Under the pieces are notes generated by a model. That model had not been told where the DNA came from. It was given only the letters and a program-made list of their open reading frames with translations, and did no database searches. The translations under genes were made by a program, and so were the position numbers. From assembly GCA_045594665.1 (NCBI GenBank), contig JAZNYX010000025.1, positions 698-64,697 of the forward strand: a stretch of DNA of 64,000 nt, written 5' to 3'. How positions within the stretch are numbered: the stretch's first letter is position 1; each line of letters opens with the position of its first letter. Below, piece by piece: positions 1,059 through 15,166 of this stretch. This DNA comes from Clostridia bacterium. Lineage in GTDB: Bacteria > Bacillota > Clostridia > UMGS1883.

Positions 1059-1315
1059 TGCTAAGCCTCCTAAAAAAGTATTTTCGCTGACTCATGCGAC
1101 GGACTGTACACGGCGCCGGGCGTTTCGCCTTTTGCCATATTAAAACCCAGAGCTCGACTCCGGGTACTACATGAATGTGGGCGCAGATGCGCAAAGCTTT
1201 ATCATGTTGTACAGTGACTGCCGCCCGGTTTCACGAACCGGACATTCTCCACGGAAAAACCTACCCATATGGTAGCAACCTCCCGCTTCATCGTCTGTCA
1301 TGTCACAGCCTTGCC

Positions 1316-4299: not shown

Positions 4300-4338
4300 T
4301 AAAACACCGCATCGAAATTCGATGCGGTGTTTGTTGTT
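4300..4338. terminator. bidirectional intrinsic terminator between mscL and the acyl-CoA synthetase gene
   Basis: aaacaccgcatcga/tcgatgcggtgttt stem flanked by A-run and T-run. Confidence 0.8.
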
Positions 4339-6035
4339 TATTGAAGAGTATTTTCCAAATCCTTTTCACGGATTGCGTTACGTCTGATTTTTCCGTTGAA
4401 GGTTTTGGGAAGCTCCGATACATATTCCACGATTCTGGGATATTTATAGGGAGCTGTATTTGTCTTGACATAGGTCTGAAGCTCTTTTGTAAGTGTATCC
4501 GAGGGTTCAAATCCTTTTGCAAGAACAATTGTTGCCTTTACGGCAAAACCACGAATCGGGTCGGGCACACCTGTTACAGCAACCTCACTTACTGCCGCAT
4601 GTTCAAGAAGAACGCTTTCAATTTCAAAAGGTCCGATTCTGTAGCCTGATGACTTGATGACGTCATCATTTCTTCCCACATAGCGGAAAAGTCCTCTTTC
4701 ATCACGATACGCGGTATCACCTGTGTGATAGAAGCCGTCGTGAAGTGCCTTCTTCGTATCTTCCATACTGAAGTTATAAGTATCAAGAAGTCCGCAGCTC
4801 TTTCTGTCACGGCTTAATACACGGATGGAGATTTCGCCCGTTGTACCTCTGGGGCAGGACTGATTATTGTTATCTAAGATATGAACATCAAACCCCGGAA
4901 CGGGAAGTCCTATTGCACCTGGAACAGGCTCTGTCCACGGATAGATAGTTGCTATACAAAGAGTGGTTTCTGTCTGTCCGAAGCCTTCATAGATTTTATG
5001 CCCCGTAGCCTCGAGCCATTTGTTATAGATTTCAGGATTAAGTGCCTCACCTGCTGTACAGCAATGTGTAAGTGACGAAAGGTCGTACTTTGAAACATCG
5101 TTAAGAAGCATCATTCTGTACATTGTGGGAGGAACGCAGAAGGTAGTAACCTTGTAATCCTGCAAAACTCCTAAGATATCTGCACCATCGAACTTGTCAA
5201 AGTCATAGACAAGCACTGCCGATTCCCCAAACCACTGTCCGTAGATTTTACCCCAAAGAGATTTAAGCCAACCTGTGTCGGAGATTGTGAAGTGAAGTCC
5301 GCCGTCCACAACCCTGTGCCAGAACACGCCTGTCATAATATGACCGAGGGGATATTTAAAGTTATGTGTGATGATTTTGGGATAGCCCGTTGTACCGGAA
5401 GAAAATGCCATAAGCATAGTATCATCGGCAGTAGTAGCCTCTTCCCCTGTGGGGCGCTGCCACTGGTCGCTTGCCATTTCGAAGCCTTCTTCGAAATCGT
5501 GCCAGCCTTCGCCTGCCTTCTTATGCTTTGTAACAAACTTGATTATGGGATGGTCATACTGCTCCTTCATTTCGTCGAAGTATTCGGTAGCCTGACCGTC
5601 ACCCGTGATAACTGCCGCCTTGATATTACCCACGTTACAGCGATAAACATAATCCTTACCTTTAAGCATATCCGTTGCCTGAACAACGATAGCACCGATT
5701 TTATGAAGTCCCAGTATGCAATACCAGAAGAAGTAGCTTCTTTTAAGGGTAAGCATTACCTTGTCACCCTTTTTGATGCCCATATACTTAAAGTAGTTTG
5801 CAGCTTTGTTGGAATTGAGCATCATATCACGGAATGTAAGATGCTTAACCTCGCTTTTGTCGTTTGAAATCCAGACCATAGCGAGCTTATCGGGCTTTTC
5901 TGTTCCCAACACATCTATTACATCATATGCAAAGTTAAAATCATCATTATAAGATAGTGTATAGTTTGTCTGTGCATCTTTAAGTGAAAGGAAATCATCT
6001 CTTGATGCACCGACAAATTTTTCGTATATTGCCAT
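4338..6035 (-). CDS. AMP-forming acyl-CoA synthetase (medium-chain/ACSM-like)
   Basis: 565 aa; FSSGTTGYPK, YGQTE, HTGDTAYRDERGLFRYVGRNDDVIKSSGYRIGPFEIE, PKTFNGKIRR adenylate-forming motifs. Confidence 0.85.
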   Translation of the reverse strand: MAIYEKFVGASRDDFLSLKDAQTNYTLSYNDDFNFAYDVIDVLGTEKPDKLAMVWISNDKSEVKHLTFRDMMLNSNKAANYFKYMGIKKGDKVMLTLKRSYFFWYCILGLHKIGAIVVQATDMLKGKDYVYRCNVGNIKAAVITGDGQATEYFDEMKEQYDHPIIKFVTKHKKAGEGWHDFEEGFEMASDQWQRPTGEEATTADDTMLMAFSSGTTGYPKIITHNFKYPLGHIMTGVFWHRVVDGGLHFTISDTGWLKSLWGKIYGQWFGESAVLVYDFDKFDGADILGVLQDYKVTTFCVPPTMYRMMLLNDVSKYDLSSLTHCCTAGEALNPEIYNKWLEATGHKIYEGFGQTETTLCIATIYPWTEPVPGAIGLPVPGFDVHILDNNNQSCPRGTTGEISIRVLSRDRKSCGLLDTYNFSMEDTKKALHDGFYHTGDTAYRDERGLFRYVGRNDDVIKSSGYRIGPFEIESVLLEHAAVSEVAVTGVPDPIRGFAVKATIVLAKGFEPSDTLTKELQTYVKTNTAPYKYPRIVEYVSELPKTFNGKIRRNAIREKDLENTLQ

Positions 6036-6073
6036 AACGGCAACTCCTCCATTTCTAAATCACAAATTCAATA

Positions 6074-6622
6074 TCATTTCATAACTACGGCTATAAACTG
6101 AGCTTCGCCGTCAATCGCCTGCTCTGCGTGAGGAACGCTTGAGTCAAAATAAACGCTGTCACCCTCCTCAAGTTCATAGGAAATGTCTCCTATAAAAAGA
6201 CGCATTTTGCCTGAAATGACATAATTGAATTCCTGACCTTCATGCCCGTGAAGCACAGGTGCATCATCATCGGGATGAATTGTAACCAAGAATGGCTCTG
6301 CTTTTTTGTTTCTGAAGGTATATGCCAGGTGCTTATAGTCGTACTCATGCTCACGCTTAACGCTGTAGCCCTGACCTTTTTTAACCATGCTGCACATAGA
6401 AAGTGTCGGCTGGTCTCCGCTAATCAGGTCAAGAACGTCCACGCCGAGAATTTCCGCAGCATTGTAAATAAAGCTGAAGGAGAAATCCATTTCGCCATTT
6501 TCATATTTTTTATATGTTTCTACGTCTTCACCAAGCTTTTGCGCCATTTCTTCGATGGATATTTCAAAGTCGTCACGAAGCGAAGCAAGACGCATTCCGA
6601 TATCTTTAATCTGTGTGTTCAT
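6074..6622 (-). CDS. XRE-family HTH regulator with C-terminal cupin domain
   Basis: 182 aa; N-terminal HTH (IGMRLASLRDDFEISIEEMAQKLG) and cupin HGHEGQEFNYVISG...VPH. Confidence 0.8.
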   Translation of the reverse strand: MNTQIKDIGMRLASLRDDFEISIEEMAQKLGEDVETYKKYENGEMDFSFSFIYNAAEILGVDVLDLISGDQPTLSMCSMVKKGQGYSVKREHEYDYKHLAYTFRNKKAEPFLVTIHPDDDAPVLHGHEGQEFNYVISGKMRLFIGDISYELEEGDSVYFDSSVPHAEQAIDGEAQFIAVVMK

Positions 6623-6687
6623 AGCTAAACCTCCATTTTAAACTAAGTTTTTCGGGAGGGCACGGAGACCCTCCCCTACATAATTAA

Positions 6688-7224
6688 TTATGCCTTATAC
6701 TCGAAACCAAGTTTAACGGCTTTCATGTTAAGGTCAAACATATTCTGCTTTGTGGGGGGTACAACCTTCTGCATTGCTTTTTCAATATTTTCCTCGGGAA
6801 TGATACCGCTCTTTGCAATCATGTGACCAATCATAATCATGTTTGCAAGACCTGTAAGTCCTTCGTCGGAAGCTATCTTTGTAGCGGGAATGTAGTAGGT
6901 TTCTACATCTGTGCGCTCTACCTTTCTGTCGATAAGAGAGCTGTCGATGAAAATCTGGCCGCCTGCTTTGGTTTCGTTTTCGTACTTGTCAAGAGAAGGA
7001 AGATTCATTGCAATCAAAATGTCGGGATTTGATACAATGGGAGAACCGATTGCATTATCGCTGAGGATAATGCTGCAGTTAGCAGTACCGCCACGCATTT
7101 CGGGGCCGTAAGAAGGAAGCCAGCTTACTTCCTTGCCGTCAATAAGACCTTCGTAGGCAAGAAATTTTCCCGAAAAGAGAATTCCCTGTCCGCCGAATCC
7201 GGCAATCAAAATTTCTTTATTCAT
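6688..7224 (-). CDS. 2-oxoacid:ferredoxin oxidoreductase, gamma subunit
   Basis: 178 aa; ILIAGFGGQGILFSGKFLA...SYGPEMRGGTANCSIILS. Confidence 0.9.
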   Translation of the reverse strand: MNKEILIAGFGGQGILFSGKFLAYEGLIDGKEVSWLPSYGPEMRGGTANCSIILSDNAIGSPIVSNPDILIAMNLPSLDKYENETKAGGQIFIDSSLIDRKVERTDVETYYIPATKIASDEGLTGLANMIMIGHMIAKSGIIPEENIEKAMQKVVPPTKQNMFDLNMKAVKLGFEYKA

Positions 7225-7241
7225 AGTTCTGTTCTCCTTTC

Positions 7242-7988
7242 TTATTTCTCTTCTGCGTACTTATCTTTATATACTCCCAAGGGATAATAGGGAAGCATAT
7301 TTTCTTCAAGCCAGCCTATTGCCTTTTCGGGAGCAAGACCCCAGTTTGTGGGACAGGTTGAAAGCACCTCTACAAGCGAGAAGCCCTTACCCTCAATCTG
7401 GTTCTGGAAAGCTTTCTTGATTGCTGCCTTTGCCTTCTTTACGTTTGCAACATTATTTACCGCAACTCTTTCAAGGTATGTAGCACCGTCAACATTTGAA
7501 AGCATTTCACAAACCTTTACAGGGTAACCAACTGTCTGTACATCACGTCCGTAGGGAGAAGTCTGTGTTTTCTGACCGGGAAGTGTTGTGGGTGCCATCT
7601 GTCCGCCTGTCATACCATAGATTGCGTTGTTTACGAAAATTACTGTGATGTTTTCGCCACGCGCTGCACTATGTACTGTTTCAGCAGTACCGATAGCGGC
7701 AAGGTCACCGTCACCCTGATATGTGAATACAATGTTATTCTTATCGCTTCTCTTAACACCTGTTGCAACTGCCGGAGCACGACCGTGTGCAGCCTGCACC
7801 ATATCGCAGTTAAAATAATTGTATGTGAATACGCTACAGCCTACCGATGCAACACCGATTGTTCTTCCTGTAACGCCAAGCTCGTCAAGTGCTTCAGCTA
7901 CAAGGCGGTGAATAATACCGTGTGTACAACCGGGGCAATAATGGAGAGGTGCCGCCGTAAGCGCATTGGGTTTATCAAATACTACCAT
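7242..7988 (-). CDS. 2-oxoacid:ferredoxin oxidoreductase, beta (TPP-binding) subunit
   Basis: 248 aa; YCPGCTHGI...GDGDLAAIG...NNAIYGMTGGQ. Confidence 0.9.
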   Translation of the reverse strand: MVVFDKPNALTAAPLHYCPGCTHGIIHRLVAEALDELGVTGRTIGVASVGCSVFTYNYFNCDMVQAAHGRAPAVATGVKRSDKNNIVFTYQGDGDLAAIGTAETVHSAARGENITVIFVNNAIYGMTGGQMAPTTLPGQKTQTSPYGRDVQTVGYPVKVCEMLSNVDGATYLERVAVNNVANVKKAKAAIKKAFQNQIEGKGFSLVEVLSTCPTNWGLAPEKAIGWLEENMLPYYPLGVYKDKYAEEK

Positions 7989-9052
7989 TATTCTTTACCT
8001 CCGTTTGCTTCATAAATCTTGTTAAGAACATCTTCTGTTGTGGTAATCATACCGCCTGTACGGTTGCAAAGAAGAACTTCCTTTTTGCAACGGATAGCAA
8101 GCTCGATATCCTCAATCATCTGTCCCATGGAAAGCTCTACGCTGATAAACTTGTTAACCTTATCGGCAGCCTCATTAAGAACCTTCTTGGGGAAAGGCCA
8201 AAGTGTAATAGGTCTTATCATACCAACCTTGATACCCTCTGCTCTTGCCTGATCAATAGCATTTTTCGCTACACGGGATGCAACGCCGTATGCTACGACA
8301 CAAATCTCGGCATCGTCCATAAGATATTCTTCGTACATTGCTTCCTCTTCTTCAATTTTCTTATAACGCTCGTAGCGCTCGAAGTTAAGCTTTTCAAGCT
8401 CGTCGGGCTGAATGAAGAGAGAGTTTACGATGTTGGGCTTTCTCTCACCTTTGGTTCCTGTAAGAGCCCATGACTTGTCGTACTCATTAATTACACCCTT
8501 TTCAAGGCTAACGGGTTCCATCATCTGACCCATGGTACCGTCGGAGAGAATCATTGCAGGCATTCTGTACTTTTCTGCAAGGTCAAAGCCCTTGAACACC
8601 ATATCAACCATTTCCTGAACGCTGTTGGGAGCAAGTACAAGCAGATGGAAGTCACCGTGACCGCCGCCCTTTGTAGCCTGGAAGTAGTCTGCCTGCGAGG
8701 GCTGGATACCGCCCAGTCCGGGGCCGCCACGCTGTACGTTAATAATAAGTGCAGGAAGGTCACAGCCTGCAAGATAGCTGATACCTTCGCTCTTAAGGCT
8801 GATTCCGGGGCTGGAGGAAGAAGTCATAACCCTCTTACCTGTGGAAGCAACACCGATAACCATATTAATTGCCGCGATTTCACTTTCAGCCTGAAGGAAA
8901 ACGCCGCCCTCTGTCTTGGGCATTTTCTTTGCCATATATGCCGCAACTTCTGTCTGCGGAGTAATAGGATAACCAAAGTAATGCTTACAGCCTGCCATTA
9001 TAGCGGCTTCTGCCAAAGCTTCGTTACCTTTCATCAAAACTTTTTCAGACAT
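7988..9052 (-). CDS. 2-oxoacid:ferredoxin oxidoreductase, alpha subunit
   Basis: 354 aa; LMKGNEALAEAAIMAGCKHYFGYPITPQTE. Confidence 0.9.
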   Translation of the reverse strand: MSEKVLMKGNEALAEAAIMAGCKHYFGYPITPQTEVAAYMAKKMPKTEGGVFLQAESEIAAINMVIGVASTGKRVMTSSSSPGISLKSEGISYLAGCDLPALIINVQRGGPGLGGIQPSQADYFQATKGGGHGDFHLLVLAPNSVQEMVDMVFKGFDLAEKYRMPAMILSDGTMGQMMEPVSLEKGVINEYDKSWALTGTKGERKPNIVNSLFIQPDELEKLNFERYERYKKIEEEEAMYEEYLMDDAEICVVAYGVASRVAKNAIDQARAEGIKVGMIRPITLWPFPKKVLNEAADKVNKFISVELSMGQMIEDIELAIRCKKEVLLCNRTGGMITTTEDVLNKIYEANGGKE

Positions 9053-9075
9053 TTATTTTTCATTCCTTTCAATGA

Positions 9076-9279
9076 TTATTTCTCTACTGTGATTACGCAG
9101 TCGGGGCACATTGTTGCACAGAATGCGCAACCGATGCACTTATCCTGCTCTGTTACCTGTGCAGGATGATAGCCACGCTTGTTAAGATCATCGGAAAGTG
9201 CGACAATCTTCTTGGGACAAGCCGTTACACAAAGGCCGCAGCCTTTACACAAATCCTTATCAAAGGTTACCTTTGCCAT
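9076..9279 (-). CDS. 2-oxoacid:ferredoxin oxidoreductase, delta subunit (2x[4Fe-4S] ferredoxin)
   Basis: 67 aa with CKGCGLCVTACP and CIGCAFCATMCP. Confidence 0.9.
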   Translation of the reverse strand: MAKVTFDKDLCKGCGLCVTACPKKIVALSDDLNKRGYHPAQVTEQDKCIGCAFCATMCPDCVITVEK

Positions 9280-9281
9280 AT

Positions 9282-9971
9282 TTATTCATTCCTTTCTGCC
9301 CAGCTTTGTCTTACATAAAGCTCAATAGGCATTAAATTATCAATTTTATCCGAAAGTGATTCGTATAAATCTTTCTTTACAGTGGTCATTTTAATCGGGA
9401 TTCCTGCCTTCTCGGAAACCTCTTTGGCGTAATCCATGGAAGAAATAACATCTTCCGCTGTGGTTTCATCGCCGATATTGGAATCGTTTACTATAGCAGT
9501 AAATTTCATATGGCAGGCATTTTCAATCTCCGCCATAATTTCAAGGGTCATATCTGCGTTACGCGTAAGGGGACGAAATTTGTTGATTACAAACAAAAGT
9601 TCGTAATCGCCGTCCTCTTCTATTGCCTCGCTGTATCTGCCCAATGCGAGTGCACCGCGGTCGTCACCGCCTACATCTATTACGGCGTGAATTTCTTTAT
9701 TCTGAAGCACACCGTAGGTTTCTGCCGGAAGTGCCGGTACGTCAACATTACTGTTGGCAAATTCGGAGGAAATAAGCTGTACGCCATTTTCCTCAAGAAC
9801 TTTCATAGAATCCTTGGTACGGAAATACGGATTTACAATATCAAGGTCCGCAATAGATACCTTTTCTCTGTGCTTTTTAAGCCAGAGTGCGTAGTTTACA
9901 GCCACATTGGTTTTTCCGCTGCCGTAATGACCGCTGAAAATGGTAATACGCTTTATACTTCTACTGTCCAT
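9282..9971 (-). CDS. MinD/ParA/CooC-type P-loop NTPase
   Basis: 229 aa; Walker [16 protein letters not shown]; overlaps ilvE stop by 19 nt. Confidence 0.6.
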
Positions 9972-11020
9972 CCCATATCATCCTCACGTTTACCCCACTG
10001 GATACCTGTAAGGGTATCGTAGAGCTTCTGGCTTACTTCACCGATTTCATTGTTGTTGATAATCATTACATCATCAACGTAACGAAGCTTACCAACGGGA
10101 GAAATAACAGCCGCAGTACCTGTACCGAAGCATTCTTCAAGCTTGCCTGCCTTCTGAGCCTCGATAAGCTCTTCTGCGCTGATGCGGCGTTCTTCAACCT
10201 CATAACCCATCTTTTTGCAAAGTGCAATTACGCTGTTTCTTGTAACACCGGGAAGAATACTTCCGTTTAACATGGGGGTAACAATCTTTCCGTCAATCTT
10301 GAAGAAGATGTTCATAGCGCCAACTTCTTCGATGTACTTTCTTTCAACACCGTCAAGCCACAATACCTGAGAATAACCGTCATCATGTGCCTTTACCTGT
10401 GCGATAAGGCTTGCGGCGTAGTTACCGCCTGTCTTTGCAAAGCCCATACCGCCCTTAACGGCTCTTACATATTCGTCCTCAATCCAGATGCCTACGGGAG
10501 CAAGACCGCTTTCGTAGTATGCACCGCTGGGAGCAAGAATGATTATGAACTTATATGTCTTAGAGGGGGCAACGCCCAAAAATTCATCTGTAGCAATAAT
10601 GAAAGGACGGATGTAAAGAGATGTGCCGTCTTCTGTGGGAATCCAGTCCTCATCAACCTTTACTACTGCCTTAACAGCCTCAACGAAATCCTCTACGGGA
10701 AGCTGAGGAATGCAAAGACGGTCGTTTGTGTCGTTAGTTCTCTTTGCGTTCATGTCGGGGCGGAAAAGTCTTACCTTGCCGTCAACGCCCTTGTACGCCT
10801 TAAGTCCCTCAAACATTTCCTGACCGTAATGGAACACCATTGCGGCAGGTGACATTACAAGGTTCTGAAAGGGAACTATTCTGGGGTCATGCCATCCCGT
10901 TCCCTCGGTGTAGTCCATTACAAACATATGGTCTGTAAAAATTTTACCAAAGCCAAGCTTCTGCCCTTTTGCGGGTTTCTCCTTGGGAGTGGTGGTTTTT
11001 TCAATCTTGATATTAAGCAT
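9953..11020 (-). CDS. ilvE: branched-chain amino acid aminotransferase
   Basis: 355 aa; FTDHMF...[13 protein letters not shown]...[16 protein letters not shown]...[11 protein letters not shown]. Confidence 0.9.
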
Positions 11021-11053
11021 ATCAAAACTTCCTTTCTGAAATATATATAAATT

Positions 11054-13516
11054 TTAATTCTTTTTAAGCCCAAGCATTTCCACGCTTTCATCACGCATTT
11101 TATACTTGAGGATTTTGCCTGCGGCATTCATGGGGAATTCTTTTACAAAAATGAAATATCGTGGTACTTTATGGCGTGCTATTGATGCATTGCCGTATTC
11201 GCGCATTTCATTTTCATCTGCTTCCTCACCCTTGTGGAGTATAATCCATGCACAGCATTCCTCGCCGTATCTTTCATCGGGAACGCCTACTACCTGGACA
11301 TCACGCACCTTGGGATTGGTAAGATAGAATTCCTCGATTTCACGGGGGTAAAGGTTTTCGCCGCCGCGAATAATCATATCCTTGAGTCTGCCCGTTACCT
11401 TAAAGTAACCATCGGCAGTTCTACAGCAGATGTCACCGGAATGAAGCCATCCATCTTTATCGATTGTCTGCGCCGTTGCTTCGGGCATTTTGTAATAGCC
11501 CTTCATTATATTAAAACCGCGGGCTATAAATTCGCCGCTTTCTCCGTCGGGAAGCTCCTCGCCCGTTTCCGGGTCTATAACCTTACACTCAACTCCGGGG
11601 AAAGGACTGCCGACTGTTTCAACACGGTGGTCAATATCCTCATTAACTTCACCCATTGTGCAGCCGGGGGAAGCCTCGGTCTGTCCATAAACGGAAATGA
11701 TTTCTTTCATGTTCATTTCATCTGCCGCACGGCGCATAAGGTCTGCCGGGCAGTTAGCACCTGCCATAATGCCTGTGCGAATGTATGAAAAGTCGGTCTT
11801 TGCAAAATCGGGATGATTGAACATTGCAATAAACATGGTGGGAACGCCGTTAAAGCAGGTAATATGCTCATCATTCACACAAGCGAGTGACGACTTGGGT
11901 GAGAAATACGGCATGGGATAAAGTGTTCCGCCGTGGGTCATGGTAGATGTCATTGAAAGCACCATACCAAAGCAATGGAACATAGGTACCTGAATCATCA
12001 TACGGTCCGCCGTGGAAAGGTCCATTCTGTCACCGATTGTCTTACCGTTATTTACGATGTTTCTGTGAGTAAGCATTACGCCCTTGGGGAAACCTGTAGT
12101 TCCCGATGTGTACTGCATATTGCATACATCGTCGGGTTTTACGAGAGATGCACGACGTCTTACTTCCTCATGAGGAATGAGACTGCTTCGTTGGAGCATC
12201 TGCTCCCATGTGAGACAGCCGTCCATAGAAAAGCCTACCGTTACAACATTACGAAGGAAAGGAAGATTTTTGGAATAAAGAGCGTCTCCCGGAGTCATCC
12301 CCTTAAGTTCGGGGCAAAGCTCCTGGATTATTTCCTTATAGTTAATATCCTTGCAATCCTCAATCATAACAAGGGTATGGGTATCTGACTGCCTGAGGAG
12401 ATATTCAATCTCATGGATTTTATATGCAGTGTTTACAGTTACCAATACTGCACCGATTTTTGTGGTTGCCCAGAAAGTAATGAACCACTGAGGAACGTTG
12501 GTTGCCCATACGGCAACGTGATCCCCTGCCTTTACTCCCATGGAAATAAGTGCCGCCGCACATTCATCAACATCGCGTCTGAACTGTGCATAAGTTCTTG
12601 TATAATCAAGGGTAGTATACTTAAATGCATATTGGTCGGGATATTTTTCTGCCATTGCATCAAGCACATCGGAGAATGTAGCATCAATTACATCATACTT
12701 TTTCCATACAAATGTGCCTGTCCTGCTGCGGTTATAATAAGCCTTGCCTGTTTCTTTCTTTTCTCTGGAAAGGCTTCCTATATAATTGGCAAAGTGAGTA
12801 AGCACGATGTCGGCATCATTCACTTCTTCATTCCATGCTACACAAATATATCCTTCATAGTTAAGAGAAGAAAGGGCGTTTATAAAGCTTGTAACAGGGA
12901 GGTCTCCCTCACCGATGAGAACTGTTTTTCCGTCTTTCATATCGCCCATTCTTGCATATTTTATATATGCACCAAGGCTCTTAATAGTGGTTTCTGCACT
13001 CTCCCCTGCTTTAAAGTAGGTTTCACGCATGTTCCATGATGCACCTATAACCGCCGAGGAAAAGAAATTTATTATATCAATTACGTTTTCCGTTTCGGAA
13101 AGGTAGCCTGCGGTTTCAAAAAGAATCTGAATGTCGGCCTCCTCCGCACGCTTTATGGCCTTTGCAAGCTTTTCGGAAAGCACTTCATTTGAGGTTTTTA
13201 CCTCGTTACGCAAAATGACCCTTTCTATTCCTGCATTACGTGCCATATCTACATATTTTACGATTTCGTCACCGTTTGCTTCTTCGCTTTCAATACTGTA
13301 GGGATATACAAGAGCAGATACAGCTAAGCTCCTGTTCACAAGCTTACGCTTTGAATCAGGGGTACGGTCAGGTCTTAAAATACTGTCGTGATGATGCTTT
13401 CTTTCTTTAAGTGCATCATATATTTCAAAGCCTGCATAACCGTAATCATACGCAAACTTACACGTATCAAGGAAGGAAGCACGGGCAACATGCTTGGTTG
13501 AAAATGTGATTTTCAT
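11054..13516 (-). CDS. fusion protein: xylose-isomerase-like TIM barrel (N, ~260 aa) + AMP-dependent acyl-CoA ligase (C, ~550 aa)
   Basis: 820 aa; C-terminal part has YTSGTTGFPKGVMLTHRN, YGQTE, SGDICCRTADGYFKVTGRLKDMIIRGGENLYPREIE; N-terminal part has an AP-endonuclease-2/TIM-barrel pattern. Confidence 0.75.
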   Translation of the reverse strand: MKITFSTKHVARASFLDTCKFAYDYGYAGFEIYDALKERKHHHDSILRPDRTPDSKRKLVNRSLAVSALVYPYSIESEEANGDEIVKYVDMARNAGIERVILRNEVKTSNEVLSEKLAKAIKRAEEADIQILFETAGYLSETENVIDIINFFSSAVIGASWNMRETYFKAGESAETTIKSLGAYIKYARMGDMKDGKTVLIGEGDLPVTSFINALSSLNYEGYICVAWNEEVNDADIVLTHFANYIGSLSREKKETGKAYYNRSRTGTFVWKKYDVIDATFSDVLDAMAEKYPDQYAFKYTTLDYTRTYAQFRRDVDECAAALISMGVKAGDHVAVWATNVPQWFITFWATTKIGAVLVTVNTAYKIHEIEYLLRQSDTHTLVMIEDCKDINYKEIIQELCPELKGMTPGDALYSKNLPFLRNVVTVGFSMDGCLTWEQMLQRSSLIPHEEVRRRASLVKPDDVCNMQYTSGTTGFPKGVMLTHRNIVNNGKTIGDRMDLSTADRMMIQVPMFHCFGMVLSMTSTMTHGGTLYPMPYFSPKSSLACVNDEHITCFNGVPTMFIAMFNHPDFAKTDFSYIRTGIMAGANCPADLMRRAADEMNMKEIISVYGQTEASPGCTMGEVNEDIDHRVETVGSPFPGVECKVIDPETGEELPDGESGEFIARGFNIMKGYYKMPEATAQTIDKDGWLHSGDICCRTADGYFKVTGRLKDMIIRGGENLYPREIEEFYLTNPKVRDVQVVGVPDERYGEECCAWIILHKGEEADENEMREYGNASIARHKVPRYFIFVKEFPMNAAGKILKYKMRDESVEMLGLKKN

Positions 13517-13517
13517 T

Positions 13518-14903
13518 TTATTCCTCCTCGAATACTATCTTGTTCAGTGCGTTAATATAAGCTCTGATACTTGCCGCTACAATATCTGTTGAAATTCCGT
13601 TGCCGCTGTAGAGCTTGCCATTGTTGCGAAGTCTTACAATCGCATTACCCAAAGCTTCTTTACCATCGGTTACGGCATGAATCTGAAAATCGTCAAGCTC
13701 GTAATGGAAGCCTATGCTCTGCTCAATGGCTCTAAATACCGAGTCAATAGGTCCGTCTCCCGTGCTGACGCCGTTTAAAATTTCATCGCCGGAGCGAAGC
13801 GTTACCTGAGACATGGAGCCTGTGAGATTGGAACAGTTTGTAGTATAGCTCTCAATATGATAGGTTGAGGGGGCTTGCATTGCAAAGCTTGCAATAAGTG
13901 CCTCCAGTTCCTTTGCTCCTACGCTGCCCTTCTTTTCACAAACCTGAGAAAGCGCCCTATAAACCTTGCCCGTATCCTCGTCGGAAAGGTCGTAGCCTAA
14001 TACATTTGCGGCATATGCCACATCTGAAAGGGTGCTGTCTGAATCAAGAATTATTTTCTTCTTTTCACTTACGTCTGCTGTTTCATATGTTTCATGATTT
14101 ATCTTGGAAAGCATCTCATCAATGCTTGCGTATATCTTTGTATTGTCAAGTCCGCTTTCAATACCGATTTTATCTCCCCTTGCCTTGATTACGCCTGCAA
14201 ACGCCCCCATGGAAAGGGCTTCTTTTCCTGCCATGGAGCATTTAAGACCGTCTGCACCTATCTTTACCGCTGAAACTGCACAAGCTACTGCCATGTCAAT
14301 TGCATTGGAAAGCTGAACATAAACGGGGATTGCTACGGCTTCCTTTACCTTTTTAACTATAGAAGCAATTTCTTCGGGAAGAGAGGTTCCTGCATCGTCA
14401 CAAATTGTAACAAGCTTTGCTCCGTTTGCCTCTGCCTCTTTCACTGCCTGAATAAGAAAATCCTCATCTGCACGTGTTGCATCAAGTGCGGCAAATTCCA
14501 CGTCGTCACAAAGCTCTTTTGCTTTCTTTGTAAGAGCGGCAATTTTGGAAAGCATTTTATCTGCTTTCACATGGTAAATGTACTCCATCTGAACAGTGGA
14601 GGTGGGAAGCTCAACCTGAAGCCTTGGGGAAGCCGCCTCTTTAACACATTCCCATGCATTTTCTACATCTTCCTCGGAAAATCCCACAGGGATTGCCACA
14701 GTGCTGTTTTTTACATTGCGGGAAATAGTCTTATATATAATAGTATCTTCGCGGACACTCTTTACAGGAGATAGCTCTACCGCATCAACCCCGAGTGCGT
14801 CGGCACAGGAGGCAATAGTAGTCTTTTCTCTGAACAATAGAGAAACAGCCCTGTCCTGTGACAGCTTTTTAAGTGTAATGTCGGTAATACTGATTTTTCT
14901 CAT
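13518..14903 (-). CDS. degenerate 2-isopropylmalate synthase (LeuA) homologue lacking catalytic motifs but keeping the C-terminal LeuA regulatory domain
   Basis: 461 aa, collinear with LeuA; DTTLRDGEQ replaced by DITLKKLSQ and HCHDDLG by VQLSNAID; C-terminal ...GNGISTDIVAASIRAYINALNKI conserved; stop/start TAAaATG coupling to the next gene. Confidence 0.7.
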   Translation of the reverse strand: MRKISITDITLKKLSQDRAVSLLFREKTTIASCADALGVDAVELSPVKSVREDTIIYKTISRNVKNSTVAIPVGFSEEDVENAWECVKEAASPRLQVELPTSTVQMEYIYHVKADKMLSKIAALTKKAKELCDDVEFAALDATRADEDFLIQAVKEAEANGAKLVTICDDAGTSLPEEIASIVKKVKEAVAIPVYVQLSNAIDMAVACAVSAVKIGADGLKCSMAGKEALSMGAFAGVIKARGDKIGIESGLDNTKIYASIDEMLSKINHETYETADVSEKKKIILDSDSTLSDVAYAANVLGYDLSDEDTGKVYRALSQVCEKKGSVGAKELEALIASFAMQAPSTYHIESYTTNCSNLTGSMSQVTLRSGDEILNGVSTGDGPIDSVFRAIEQSIGFHYELDDFQIHAVTDGKEALGNAIVRLRNNGKLYSGNGISTDIVAASIRAYINALNKIVFEEE

Positions 14904-14926
14904 ATCTAACTCTCCTTGTGATTTTT

Positions 14927-14970
14927 TCGGAAAACAAAATAACCTGCGGCACTACTTGCCGCAGGTTATT
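14927..14970 (-). terminator. intrinsic terminator/attenuator 25-35 nt upstream of the LeuA-like start codon
   Basis: minus strand: aataacctgcggc-aagtagt-gccgcaggttatt followed by TTTTGTTTTCC. Confidence 0.7.
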
Positions 14971-14998
14971 GGTATTCATAATACGAACTCAACCCTTT

Positions 14999-15109
14999 TT
15001 ACTTAAACACACGACAAACAGCGCTATTCTTATCCGGCTTTGTAATTGCTAGAATAATAATAGCGATGAGAAGAAGTATGTTTGCTGTAAAGAAAGATTG
15101 CATATTCAT
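14999..15109 (-). CDS. 36-aa hydrophobic Ile/Leu-rich small ORF (leader peptide or small membrane peptide)
   Basis: GAGG RBS 9 nt upstream; MNMQSFFTANILLLIAIIILAITKPDKNSAVCRVFK; lies between a consensus promoter and the terminator. Confidence 0.45.
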   Translation of the reverse strand: MNMQSFFTANILLLIAIIILAITKPDKNSAVCRVFK

Positions 15110-15137
15110 ACTTAAAACCTCACGTTTCTTACGCTAC

Positions 15138-15166
15138 AGTATAACCATTAGCAAAGCCTTTGTCAA
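15138..15166 (-). promoter_or_regulatory. consensus sigmaA promoter TTGACA-17-TATACT driving the leader ORF and the LeuA-like operon
   Basis: -35 at 15161..15166, -10 at 15138..15143 on the minus strand. Confidence 0.65.

Follow-up and report, generated by a model that had tools for sequence, protein, structure and literature searches.

The 64,000-nt window analyzed here, from an uncultured Clostridia bacterium, carries on its minus strand a predicted operon that is probably a salvage system for branched-chain amino acids, switched on by isoleucine and leucine starvation; we assign this reading, which is built from sequence evidence, a probability of roughly 0.8. Ten co-directional genes span positions 15166 to 4302, and neighbors overlap by 1 to 19 nt or are separated by gaps of no more than 65 nt. 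In the proposed route, isovalerate would be activated by a ligase fused to a TIM barrel (11054–13516) and 2-methylbutyrate by a Macs/ACSM-type AMP-forming ligase (4338–6035), each yielding the CoA ester with conversion of ATP to AMP. A four-subunit 2-oxoacid:ferredoxin oxidoreductase (OFOR), VorDABG, would use reduced ferredoxin and CO2 to convert these acyl-CoAs to 2-oxoisocaproate and 3-methyl-2-oxovalerate, which the aminotransferase IlvE would transaminate to leucine and isoleucine. Valine would be made with the same oxidoreductase and IlvE, starting from an HTH-cupin–ligase encoded behind a Val T-box on another contig of the host genome, C31. An earlier annotation of the window (the original prediction) had proposed the same passage from acid to acyl-CoA, 2-oxoacid and amino acid, and this is supported by the specifiers of T-box riboswitches in related loci, by a host assembly without the de novo pathway, by the complementary distribution of the fusion gene and IlvD, and by the match of the Macs-type ligase to a characterized enzyme, MacsMa. 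All ten genes were found where that annotation had placed them, as tightly spaced as it had described, and their domains were confirmed by Pfam and NCBIfam. It had also credited the operon with all three amino acids; candidate ligases for leucine and isoleucine do lie in the operon, but valine would need the third ligase on C31.

Regulatory leaders and the amino acids they would sense

When species-representative genomes were scanned for the fusion protein, at least 589 relatives were returned, and the comparisons of gene order and leaders below are based on the best 80 loci, all of them from uncultured gut and rumen Clostridia. The gene for a degenerate LeuA (pseudo-LeuA, 13518–14903; HMGL-like barrel and LeuA_dimer domains by Pfam and NCBIfam) and the fusion gene are adjacent without exception in ~75 loci; in the window, the stop codon of the former overlaps the start codon of the latter. 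A gene or module for an HTH(XRE)-cupin protein (6074–6622 in the window; HTH_3 and Cupin_2 by Pfam) always stands before a Macs-type ligase, an orphan P-loop NTPase gene (9282–9971) always directly before vorD, and ilvE usually adjoins the block formed by the P-loop gene and vorDABG. The usual order is a Leu unit, an Ile unit and a Val unit, followed by ilvE, the P-loop gene, and vorDABG. At several loci (L071, L075, and L080), the pair of pseudo-LeuA and fusion genes is followed directly by ilvE, the P-loop gene, and vorDABG. Merger of all ten genes behind an Ile/Leu leader is restricted to the closest relatives of the window (L001–L004, L018, and L054); across the related loci, gene order, which the original prediction had suggested checking, is modular.

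Elsewhere among the related loci, the units sit behind T-box riboswitches. Specifiers were read by a fixed-offset rule, and the specifier column was confirmed by covariance-model (cmscan) alignments for Leu, Ile, and Val examples. Upstream of pseudo-LeuA, the specifier is CUC or CUG (Leu) in 49 of 53 T-boxes; upstream of the HTH-cupin–ligase units, it is AUC (Ile) in 31 of 52 and GUA (Val) in 20 of 52. The Rfam model RF00230 gave 13 matches in the related loci at 93.6 to 143.8 bits; the Rfam gathering threshold misses the Ile and Val T-boxes, which score 86.6 to 92.8 bits, just under it, with E-values down to 1e-17. If isovalerate, 2-methylbutyrate, and isobutyrate are converted to leucine, isoleucine, and valine, one would expect three ligases, each gated by the charging of one branched-chain tRNA, ahead of a shared oxidoreductase and IlvE, and this is the arrangement seen. 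In two related genomes, two tandem T-box motifs lie upstream of pseudo-LeuA (L074:2042–2445 and L075:8299–8547).

The window departs from its relatives in several respects: a leader peptide replaces the Leu T-box, the units are merged, HTH-cupin and ligase are split into two genes, and the Val ligase lies elsewhere. An Rfam search found no T-box or other riboswitch ahead of the window operon. Where other lineages carry the Leu T-box, there is instead a 36-codon open reading frame (ORF) with a GAGG ribosome-binding site (14999–15109, minus strand). It is preceded by a sigma-70-type promoter (TTGACA and TATACT separated by 17 nt, 15138–15166, minus strand) that matches the consensus at 11 of 12 positions and has both hexamers conserved in 6 related loci. 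Leader codons 11 to 22 read I L L L I A I I I L A I; six of the 12 are Ile, four are Leu, and none is Val. The leader is followed by an attenuator terminator (14927–14970, stem 14938–14970, minus strand) with a 14-bp stem, a 5-nt loop, and a U-tract (−22.6 kcal/mol). The leader ORF, its Ile/Leu run, the stretch that follows, and the terminator are conserved in all six of the loci with the merged operon. The Ile/Leu-rich leader and terminator described by the original prediction were recovered in the window. The three elements that lie ahead of pseudo-LeuA, namely a promoter, a short ORF rich in regulatory codons, and an intrinsic terminator, are those expected of a leader-peptide attenuator.

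The leader was folded both as full-length minimum-energy structures and co-transcriptionally, i.e., before the 3′ arm of the terminator is made. A candidate antiterminator strand, corresponding to leader codons 30 to 34 (15010–15022, minus strand), can pair with 14952–14964, which comprises the second half of the terminator 5′ arm and the loop. In the co-transcriptional folds, these strands form 12 pairs, including G–U pairs, in an intermediate of about −13.8 kcal/mol. The 15010–15022 strand is conserved at the nucleotide level in 7 of 7 sequences (the window and the six related loci); the alignment of these sequences showed no clear covariation for the antiterminator. From these folds, we infer that the leader fits the classical attenuation model. 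A ribosome that reaches the leader stop codon would mask the 15010–15022 strand and leave the terminator to form; one stalled in the Ile/Leu run would leave that strand free to build the antiterminator and permit readthrough.

A Leu T-box controls the ilv-leu operon of Bacillus subtilis, and leader-peptide attenuators control the ilvGMEDA and leu operons of Escherichia coli. The window operon resembles both in the use of transcription attenuation that would report tRNA charging. It differs from them in that the controlled enzymes belong to a salvage route rather than the de novo pathway, that orthologous operons use either device, and that the antiterminator is a predicted one.

Ligases, oxidoreductase, and the missing de novo pathway

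Domain calls were made with Pfam and NCBIfam profiles against their curated cut-offs. Exactly three candidate ligases are present in the host genome: the fusion, the in-operon Macs-type ligase, and the C31 ligase. The last is encoded at C31:20066–22351 (L091:2775–5351), outside the window, as a single 761-residue HTH-cupin–AMP-ligase ORF behind a Val T-box (GUA), and is followed by an unrelated SLH-domain gene. The in-operon ligase has AMP-binding and AMP-binding_C domains (Pfam) and matches PDB entry 3ETC (MacsMa) with 624.6 bits over residues 10 to 560; the in-operon ligase, the C31 ligase, and an Ile-gated example all score 606 to 625 bits to 3ETC over nearly their full length. MacsMa from Methanosarcina acetivorans prefers 2-methylbutyrate and takes this acid through both half-reactions to its CoA ester (PMC10455477). 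Among the NCBIfam models, MbcS matches the in-operon ligase best (NF047394, 405.1 bits), below the cut-off of 850; in Staphylococcus aureus, MbcS activates 2-methylbutyrate and isobutyrate for priming by FabH (PMC10026030). Despite the near full-length similarity to MacsMa, the ligases described here are set apart from these two enzymes by the N-terminal HTH-cupin that they usually carry, by T-box gating, by their linkage to an oxidoreductase and IlvE, and by an MbcS score below the cut-off.

A quick tree of the ligases grouped those with Val labels (3 label changes versus 21 expected by shuffling). The in-operon ligase could be assigned to neither clade, Ile or Val, from this tree. By elimination, and from the leader codons, it is proposed to be the 2-methylbutyrate–CoA ligase of the isoleucine branch; an Ile/Leu leader without a Val codon matches an operon that holds the leucine and isoleucine ligases while the valine ligase is controlled separately. 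The fusion, which joins an AP_endonuc_2 (xylose-isomerase-like) TIM barrel at residues 1 to 250 to an AMP-forming acyl-CoA ligase (Pfam and NCBIfam), would be the isovalerate–CoA ligase, as the Leu T-box of its relatives suggests.

The two remaining steps would be carried out by IlvE and the oxidoreductase. IlvE (9953–11020), a branched-chain aminotransferase of class IV type II, scores 503.6 bits with NF009897 (cut-off 307) and 411 with TIGR01123 (cut-off 250). The OFOR alpha subunit (7988–9052; POR_N and PFOR_II) scores 545.9 bits with NF005507, named VorB (cut-off 399), and is encoded together with a TPP-binding beta subunit (7242–7988; TPP_enzyme_C), a gamma subunit (6688–7224; POR), both called by Pfam and NCBIfam, and a delta subunit (9076–9279) with two 4Fe-4S motifs of the form CxxCxxCxxxCP. 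VorDABG thus has all four subunits, each with its characteristic domains, of the 2-ketoisovalerate:ferredoxin oxidoreductase (VOR) of archaea and anaerobic bacteria; from the name given by homology and the T-box context, it is proposed to act on branched-chain 2-oxoacids and acyl-CoAs, in the reductive direction. Relative to the described VOR enzymes, it is distinguished by this proposed direction and by the dedicated P-loop NTPase gene that always precedes it, an arrangement that, to our knowledge, is not found with described VORs.

The P-loop protein itself, assigned to the SIMIBI class from Pfam and a structure model, contains a Walker A sequence GHYGSGKT and a single cysteine. It has a borderline match to Pfam ParA (27.8 versus 27.1) and lacks both the signature lysine of the KGGxGK[ST] motif of MinD/ParA/Mrp-type proteins and the CxxC motif of the Fe-S carriers among them. 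Its structure model matches SRP GTPases and ATPase-type HypB, with TM scores of only 0.5 to 0.58. A role as a NifH-like, ATP-driven electron donor was considered and rejected, because the protein has a single cysteine, no residues that would ligate a cluster, and no near relative by structure. Rare natural fusions join the P-loop NTPase to VorD (P0119), to a Fer4 plus a TPP domain (P0137), or to an AMP-ligase (P0127); these longer forms are mostly singletons from short contigs, and some may be gene-calling artefacts. Our best guess is that it helps to assemble the oxidoreductase or is one of its subunits. The P-loop ATPase listed by the original prediction is present, with the correction that it belongs with the oxidoreductase and travels with vorD.

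The host assembly (1.82 Mb in 71 contigs, 90% complete) contained no match to IlvD or to the C-terminal domain of IlvC. Nor was acetolactate synthase found in it, the only TPP_enzyme_C matches being IorA, the Vor beta subunit, and pyruvate:ferredoxin oxidoreductase (PFOR), and true LeuA and LeuB were likewise not found. Other HMGL-like and Iso_dh genes were considered as hidden leuA and leuB and rejected, as they belong to a cluster with citrate-synthase-like, aconitase, and isocitrate dehydrogenase genes and to oxaloacetate decarboxylase. On contig C9 (L088:3731–8911), an HMGL-like protein that has no LeuA domain is encoded next to a GntR/FCD regulator, a fused aconitase, and an isocitrate/isopropylmalate dehydrogenase, and this cluster looks like a citrate-synthase-like route to 2-oxoglutarate rather than leuABCD.

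The distribution of the fusion and IlvD was examined in 58 genomes of the order, each at least 85% complete. The fusion was present and IlvD absent in 36 of them, and the fusion absent and IlvD present in 16; four genomes had both and two had neither. Within the order, the two genes thus come close to excluding each other. The host assembly also yielded no FabH or FabF/B-type ketoacyl synthase; ketoacyl synthase is absent from 18 of 22 genomes of the genus, in which the fusion is carried by 20 of 21. Type II fatty-acid synthesis may be missing from this lineage, which may then rely on fatty acids taken from outside.

Elsewhere in the host genome, contig C29 (C29:1628–3939; L090) carries the genes for indolepyruvate:ferredoxin oxidoreductase (IorA and IorB), bordered by two ORFs of ~435 aa. 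Indolepyruvate oxidoreductase with aryl-acid CoA ligases serves aromatic amino acids, and the C29 locus may be an aromatic counterpart of the same salvage logic, carried out by another enzyme family on other substrates.

Proposed accessory modules of the ligases and the surroundings of the operon

Aligned to LeuA from Neisseria (3RMJ), pseudo-LeuA is collinear through the HMGL-like barrel and the allosteric domain, but its substrate- and metal-binding motifs are replaced (RDGEQ by KKLSQ, and the metal-site HxH by QxS), and all LeuA models fall far below their cut-offs (264.6 versus 532 for the best). The allosteric domain is intact (PF08502, 103.9 bits versus 24.9), and across 41 orthologues no other part of the protein is as well conserved as this LeuA_dimer domain. 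Judged by its motifs, pseudo-LeuA is a pseudoenzyme, in agreement with the degenerate LeuA of the original prediction.

The TIM domain of the fusion matches AP_endonuc_2 (43.9 bits versus 31.1), and its structure model (pLDDT 90.9) has TM scores of 0.70 to 0.76 to UlaE and ketose 3-epimerases at 12 to 17% identity; a sequence search of the PDB with this domain gave no match. At the canonical Glu/Asp/His/Glu metal ligands, assigned by motif position, it has E134, N162, R189, and a variable last position, so that by this measure two or three of these residues seem to have been substituted. A predicted complex between pseudo-LeuA and the TIM domain scored 0.45 versus 0.00 for the best control, which lends it weak support. 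The calibration mark is reached by 58 of 80 solved complexes and by 2 of 110 mismatched pairs, and scores of 0.60 or less occur in only 7 of the 80 solved complexes and in both of the mismatches that pass. Prediction runs agree in at least 78% of contacts, with partner pLDDT values of at least 85. Given the complex prediction and the unfailing adjacency of the two genes, a complex of pseudo-LeuA and the TIM domain is taken as plausible, and we propose that pseudo-LeuA acts as a partner of this domain that binds leucine.

In 48 of 48 T-box units, and in the host's own C31 copy, HTH-cupin and ligase share one continuous reading frame; the lineage of the window alone encodes the HTH-cupin separately, behind a ribosome-binding site of its own. 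The HTH-cupin is for this reason proposed to be a regulatory module of the isoleucine and valine ligases, detached here from its ligase, and not the stand-alone operon regulator for which it had originally been taken.

These features can be combined into a broader scheme that we regard as tentative and, taken as a whole, rather doubtful. Each salvage ligase would carry a recruited sensor of its end product. The dead LeuA would have kept its leucine-binding domain and would dock on the TIM barrel of the isovalerate ligase; the HTH-cupin would act likewise for the isoleucine and valine ligases, perhaps with BirA-like DNA binding. In the same scheme, the P-loop NTPase would be a partner of the reductive oxidoreductase, and the Ile/Leu leader peptide would have replaced a single-amino-acid T-box when the units merged. 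If true, feedback control would have been transferred from a lost de novo pathway to a salvage pathway.

The operon ends in a hairpin terminator directly after the last stop codon (4302–4332, minus strand), predicted to function in both directions. Between vorG and the HTH-cupin gene, in a gap of 65 nt, lies a GC-rich hairpin (6654–6676, minus strand; GGGGAGGG, then an 8-nt loop, then CCCTCCC) that has no U-tract; it might serve in RNA processing or stability, or act as a weak terminator inside the operon, and so set the last two genes apart. The genes bordering the operon are unrelated, with DnaD/DnaI-like replication genes upstream and MscL and a pseudouridine synthase downstream. Farther away, at 1218–1300 (minus strand), an ordinary S10-Clostridia ribosomal protein leader (RF03136, 58.9 bits) precedes the S10 operon.

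Alternative explanations and significance

Several points weigh against the salvage system described above or against parts of it. The beta, gamma, and delta subunits of the OFOR fall under their NCBIfam cut-offs, and the name VorB comes from homology only. Searches with the fusion ligase domain found no close characterized relative, which leaves the Leu T-box as the source of the isovalerate assignment, and the quick tree placed the in-operon ligase on a long branch of its own without assigning it to either clade. In an assembly of 71 contigs, absences are not proof, and because the genomes in the 58-genome comparison are related, their counts record only a handful of evolutionary events and not 58 separate ones. 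For the leader, full-length minimum-energy folds form the terminator at every ribosome position; the antiterminator appears only in the co-transcriptional folds and is the weaker structure (−13.8 versus −22.6 kcal/mol). The leader could alternatively be a small membrane peptide. Contigs from one sequencing run presumed to be RNA and from one DNA run match this stretch at about 90% likeness and carry no information on its transcripts.

The MbcS match (405 bits) of the last ligase, together with the function of MbcS in activating 2-methylbutyrate and isobutyrate for FabH priming (PMC10026030), raises the prospect that the ligases supply branched acyl-CoA primers for branched-chain membrane fatty acids, as in S. 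aureus, with IlvE and the oxidoreductase feeding the same pool from amino acids. This is improbable on present evidence: the 850-bit MbcS cut-off is not reached, the host assembly lacks recognizable FabH and FabF/B, and most genomes of the genus carry the fusion and no ketoacyl synthase. Moreover, T-box and leader control follows tRNA charging, i.e., the needs of translation, and the cluster replaces IlvD across the order. The least probable of the alternatives, with only a very slight chance of being correct, is a catabolic operon that would gain energy or redox balance by breaking down branched-chain amino acids, through IlvE and the oxidoreductase, to acyl-CoAs and from there to branched acids. 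Enzymes of the 2-oxoacid:ferredoxin oxidoreductase family can work both ways and are known mainly for oxidation, and the original prediction held that the genes could equally run this way. However, orthologous units are induced by uncharged tRNA-Leu, -Ile, and -Val, and the window operon, by prediction, through its Ile/Leu leader; a catabolic operon would need the reverse. AMP-forming ligases work in the direction from acid to CoA ester, and with these enzymes, in place of a phosphotransacylase/kinase pair or an ADP-forming synthetase, no ATP would be conserved; the host also has no other source of branched-chain amino acids. Control by uncharged tRNA or by stalling at Ile/Leu codons, combined with AMP-forming ligases, thus points to synthesis rather than to a route that could run equally well in reverse.

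A further alternative leaves salvage to the Macs-type ligases and has the pair of pseudo-LeuA and TIM-barrel ligase make or sense something other than isovaleryl-CoA, such as a leucine-related acid or a signaling acyl-adenylate. The ligase domain without a characterized close relative is compatible with this, as are the non-canonical appearance of both TIM barrels and the frequent occurrence of the pair without an oxidoreductase nearby. Against it stand the Leu T-box in ~50 loci, the loci in which the pair is followed directly by ilvE, the P-loop gene, and vorDABG (L071, L075, and L080), and the fact that the fusion is the only candidate for a third ligase when three amino acids are to be made; we consider this alternative unlikely and salvage through all three ligases the better account.

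That anaerobes of the rumen and gut require branched short-chain acids has been recognized for ~60 years, and "isoacids" are used as feed additives for ruminants. Labeling work by Allison, Bryant, and Robinson in the 1960s reportedly established that rumen anaerobes reductively carboxylate isovalerate, 2-methylbutyrate, and isobutyrate to leucine, isoleucine, and valine. The proposed operon shares with that pathway the three-step chemistry and the habitat, the guts of ruminants and other animals. The earlier studies were physiological, and the carriers here are uncultured Clostridia, not classical ruminococci; the host is not a Ruminococcus, a genus that the original prediction had named for a check of gene order. 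Full-text literature searches turned up no paper that describes the cluster or assigns its genes or regulation. The chemistry is classical; the gene assignment and the provision of one tRNA-sensing leader for each acid-activating enzyme are what was not found in the literature.

In the comparison, orthologous operons carry either a T-box or a leader peptide, an exchange of one regulatory device for another, and metabolic ligases are joined by pseudoenzyme or HTH-cupin modules. The cluster gives testable candidate genes for every step of the rumen branched-acid route, and presence of the fusion with absence of IlvD is a marker by which dependence of uncultured gut bacteria on cross-fed branched acids could be predicted.

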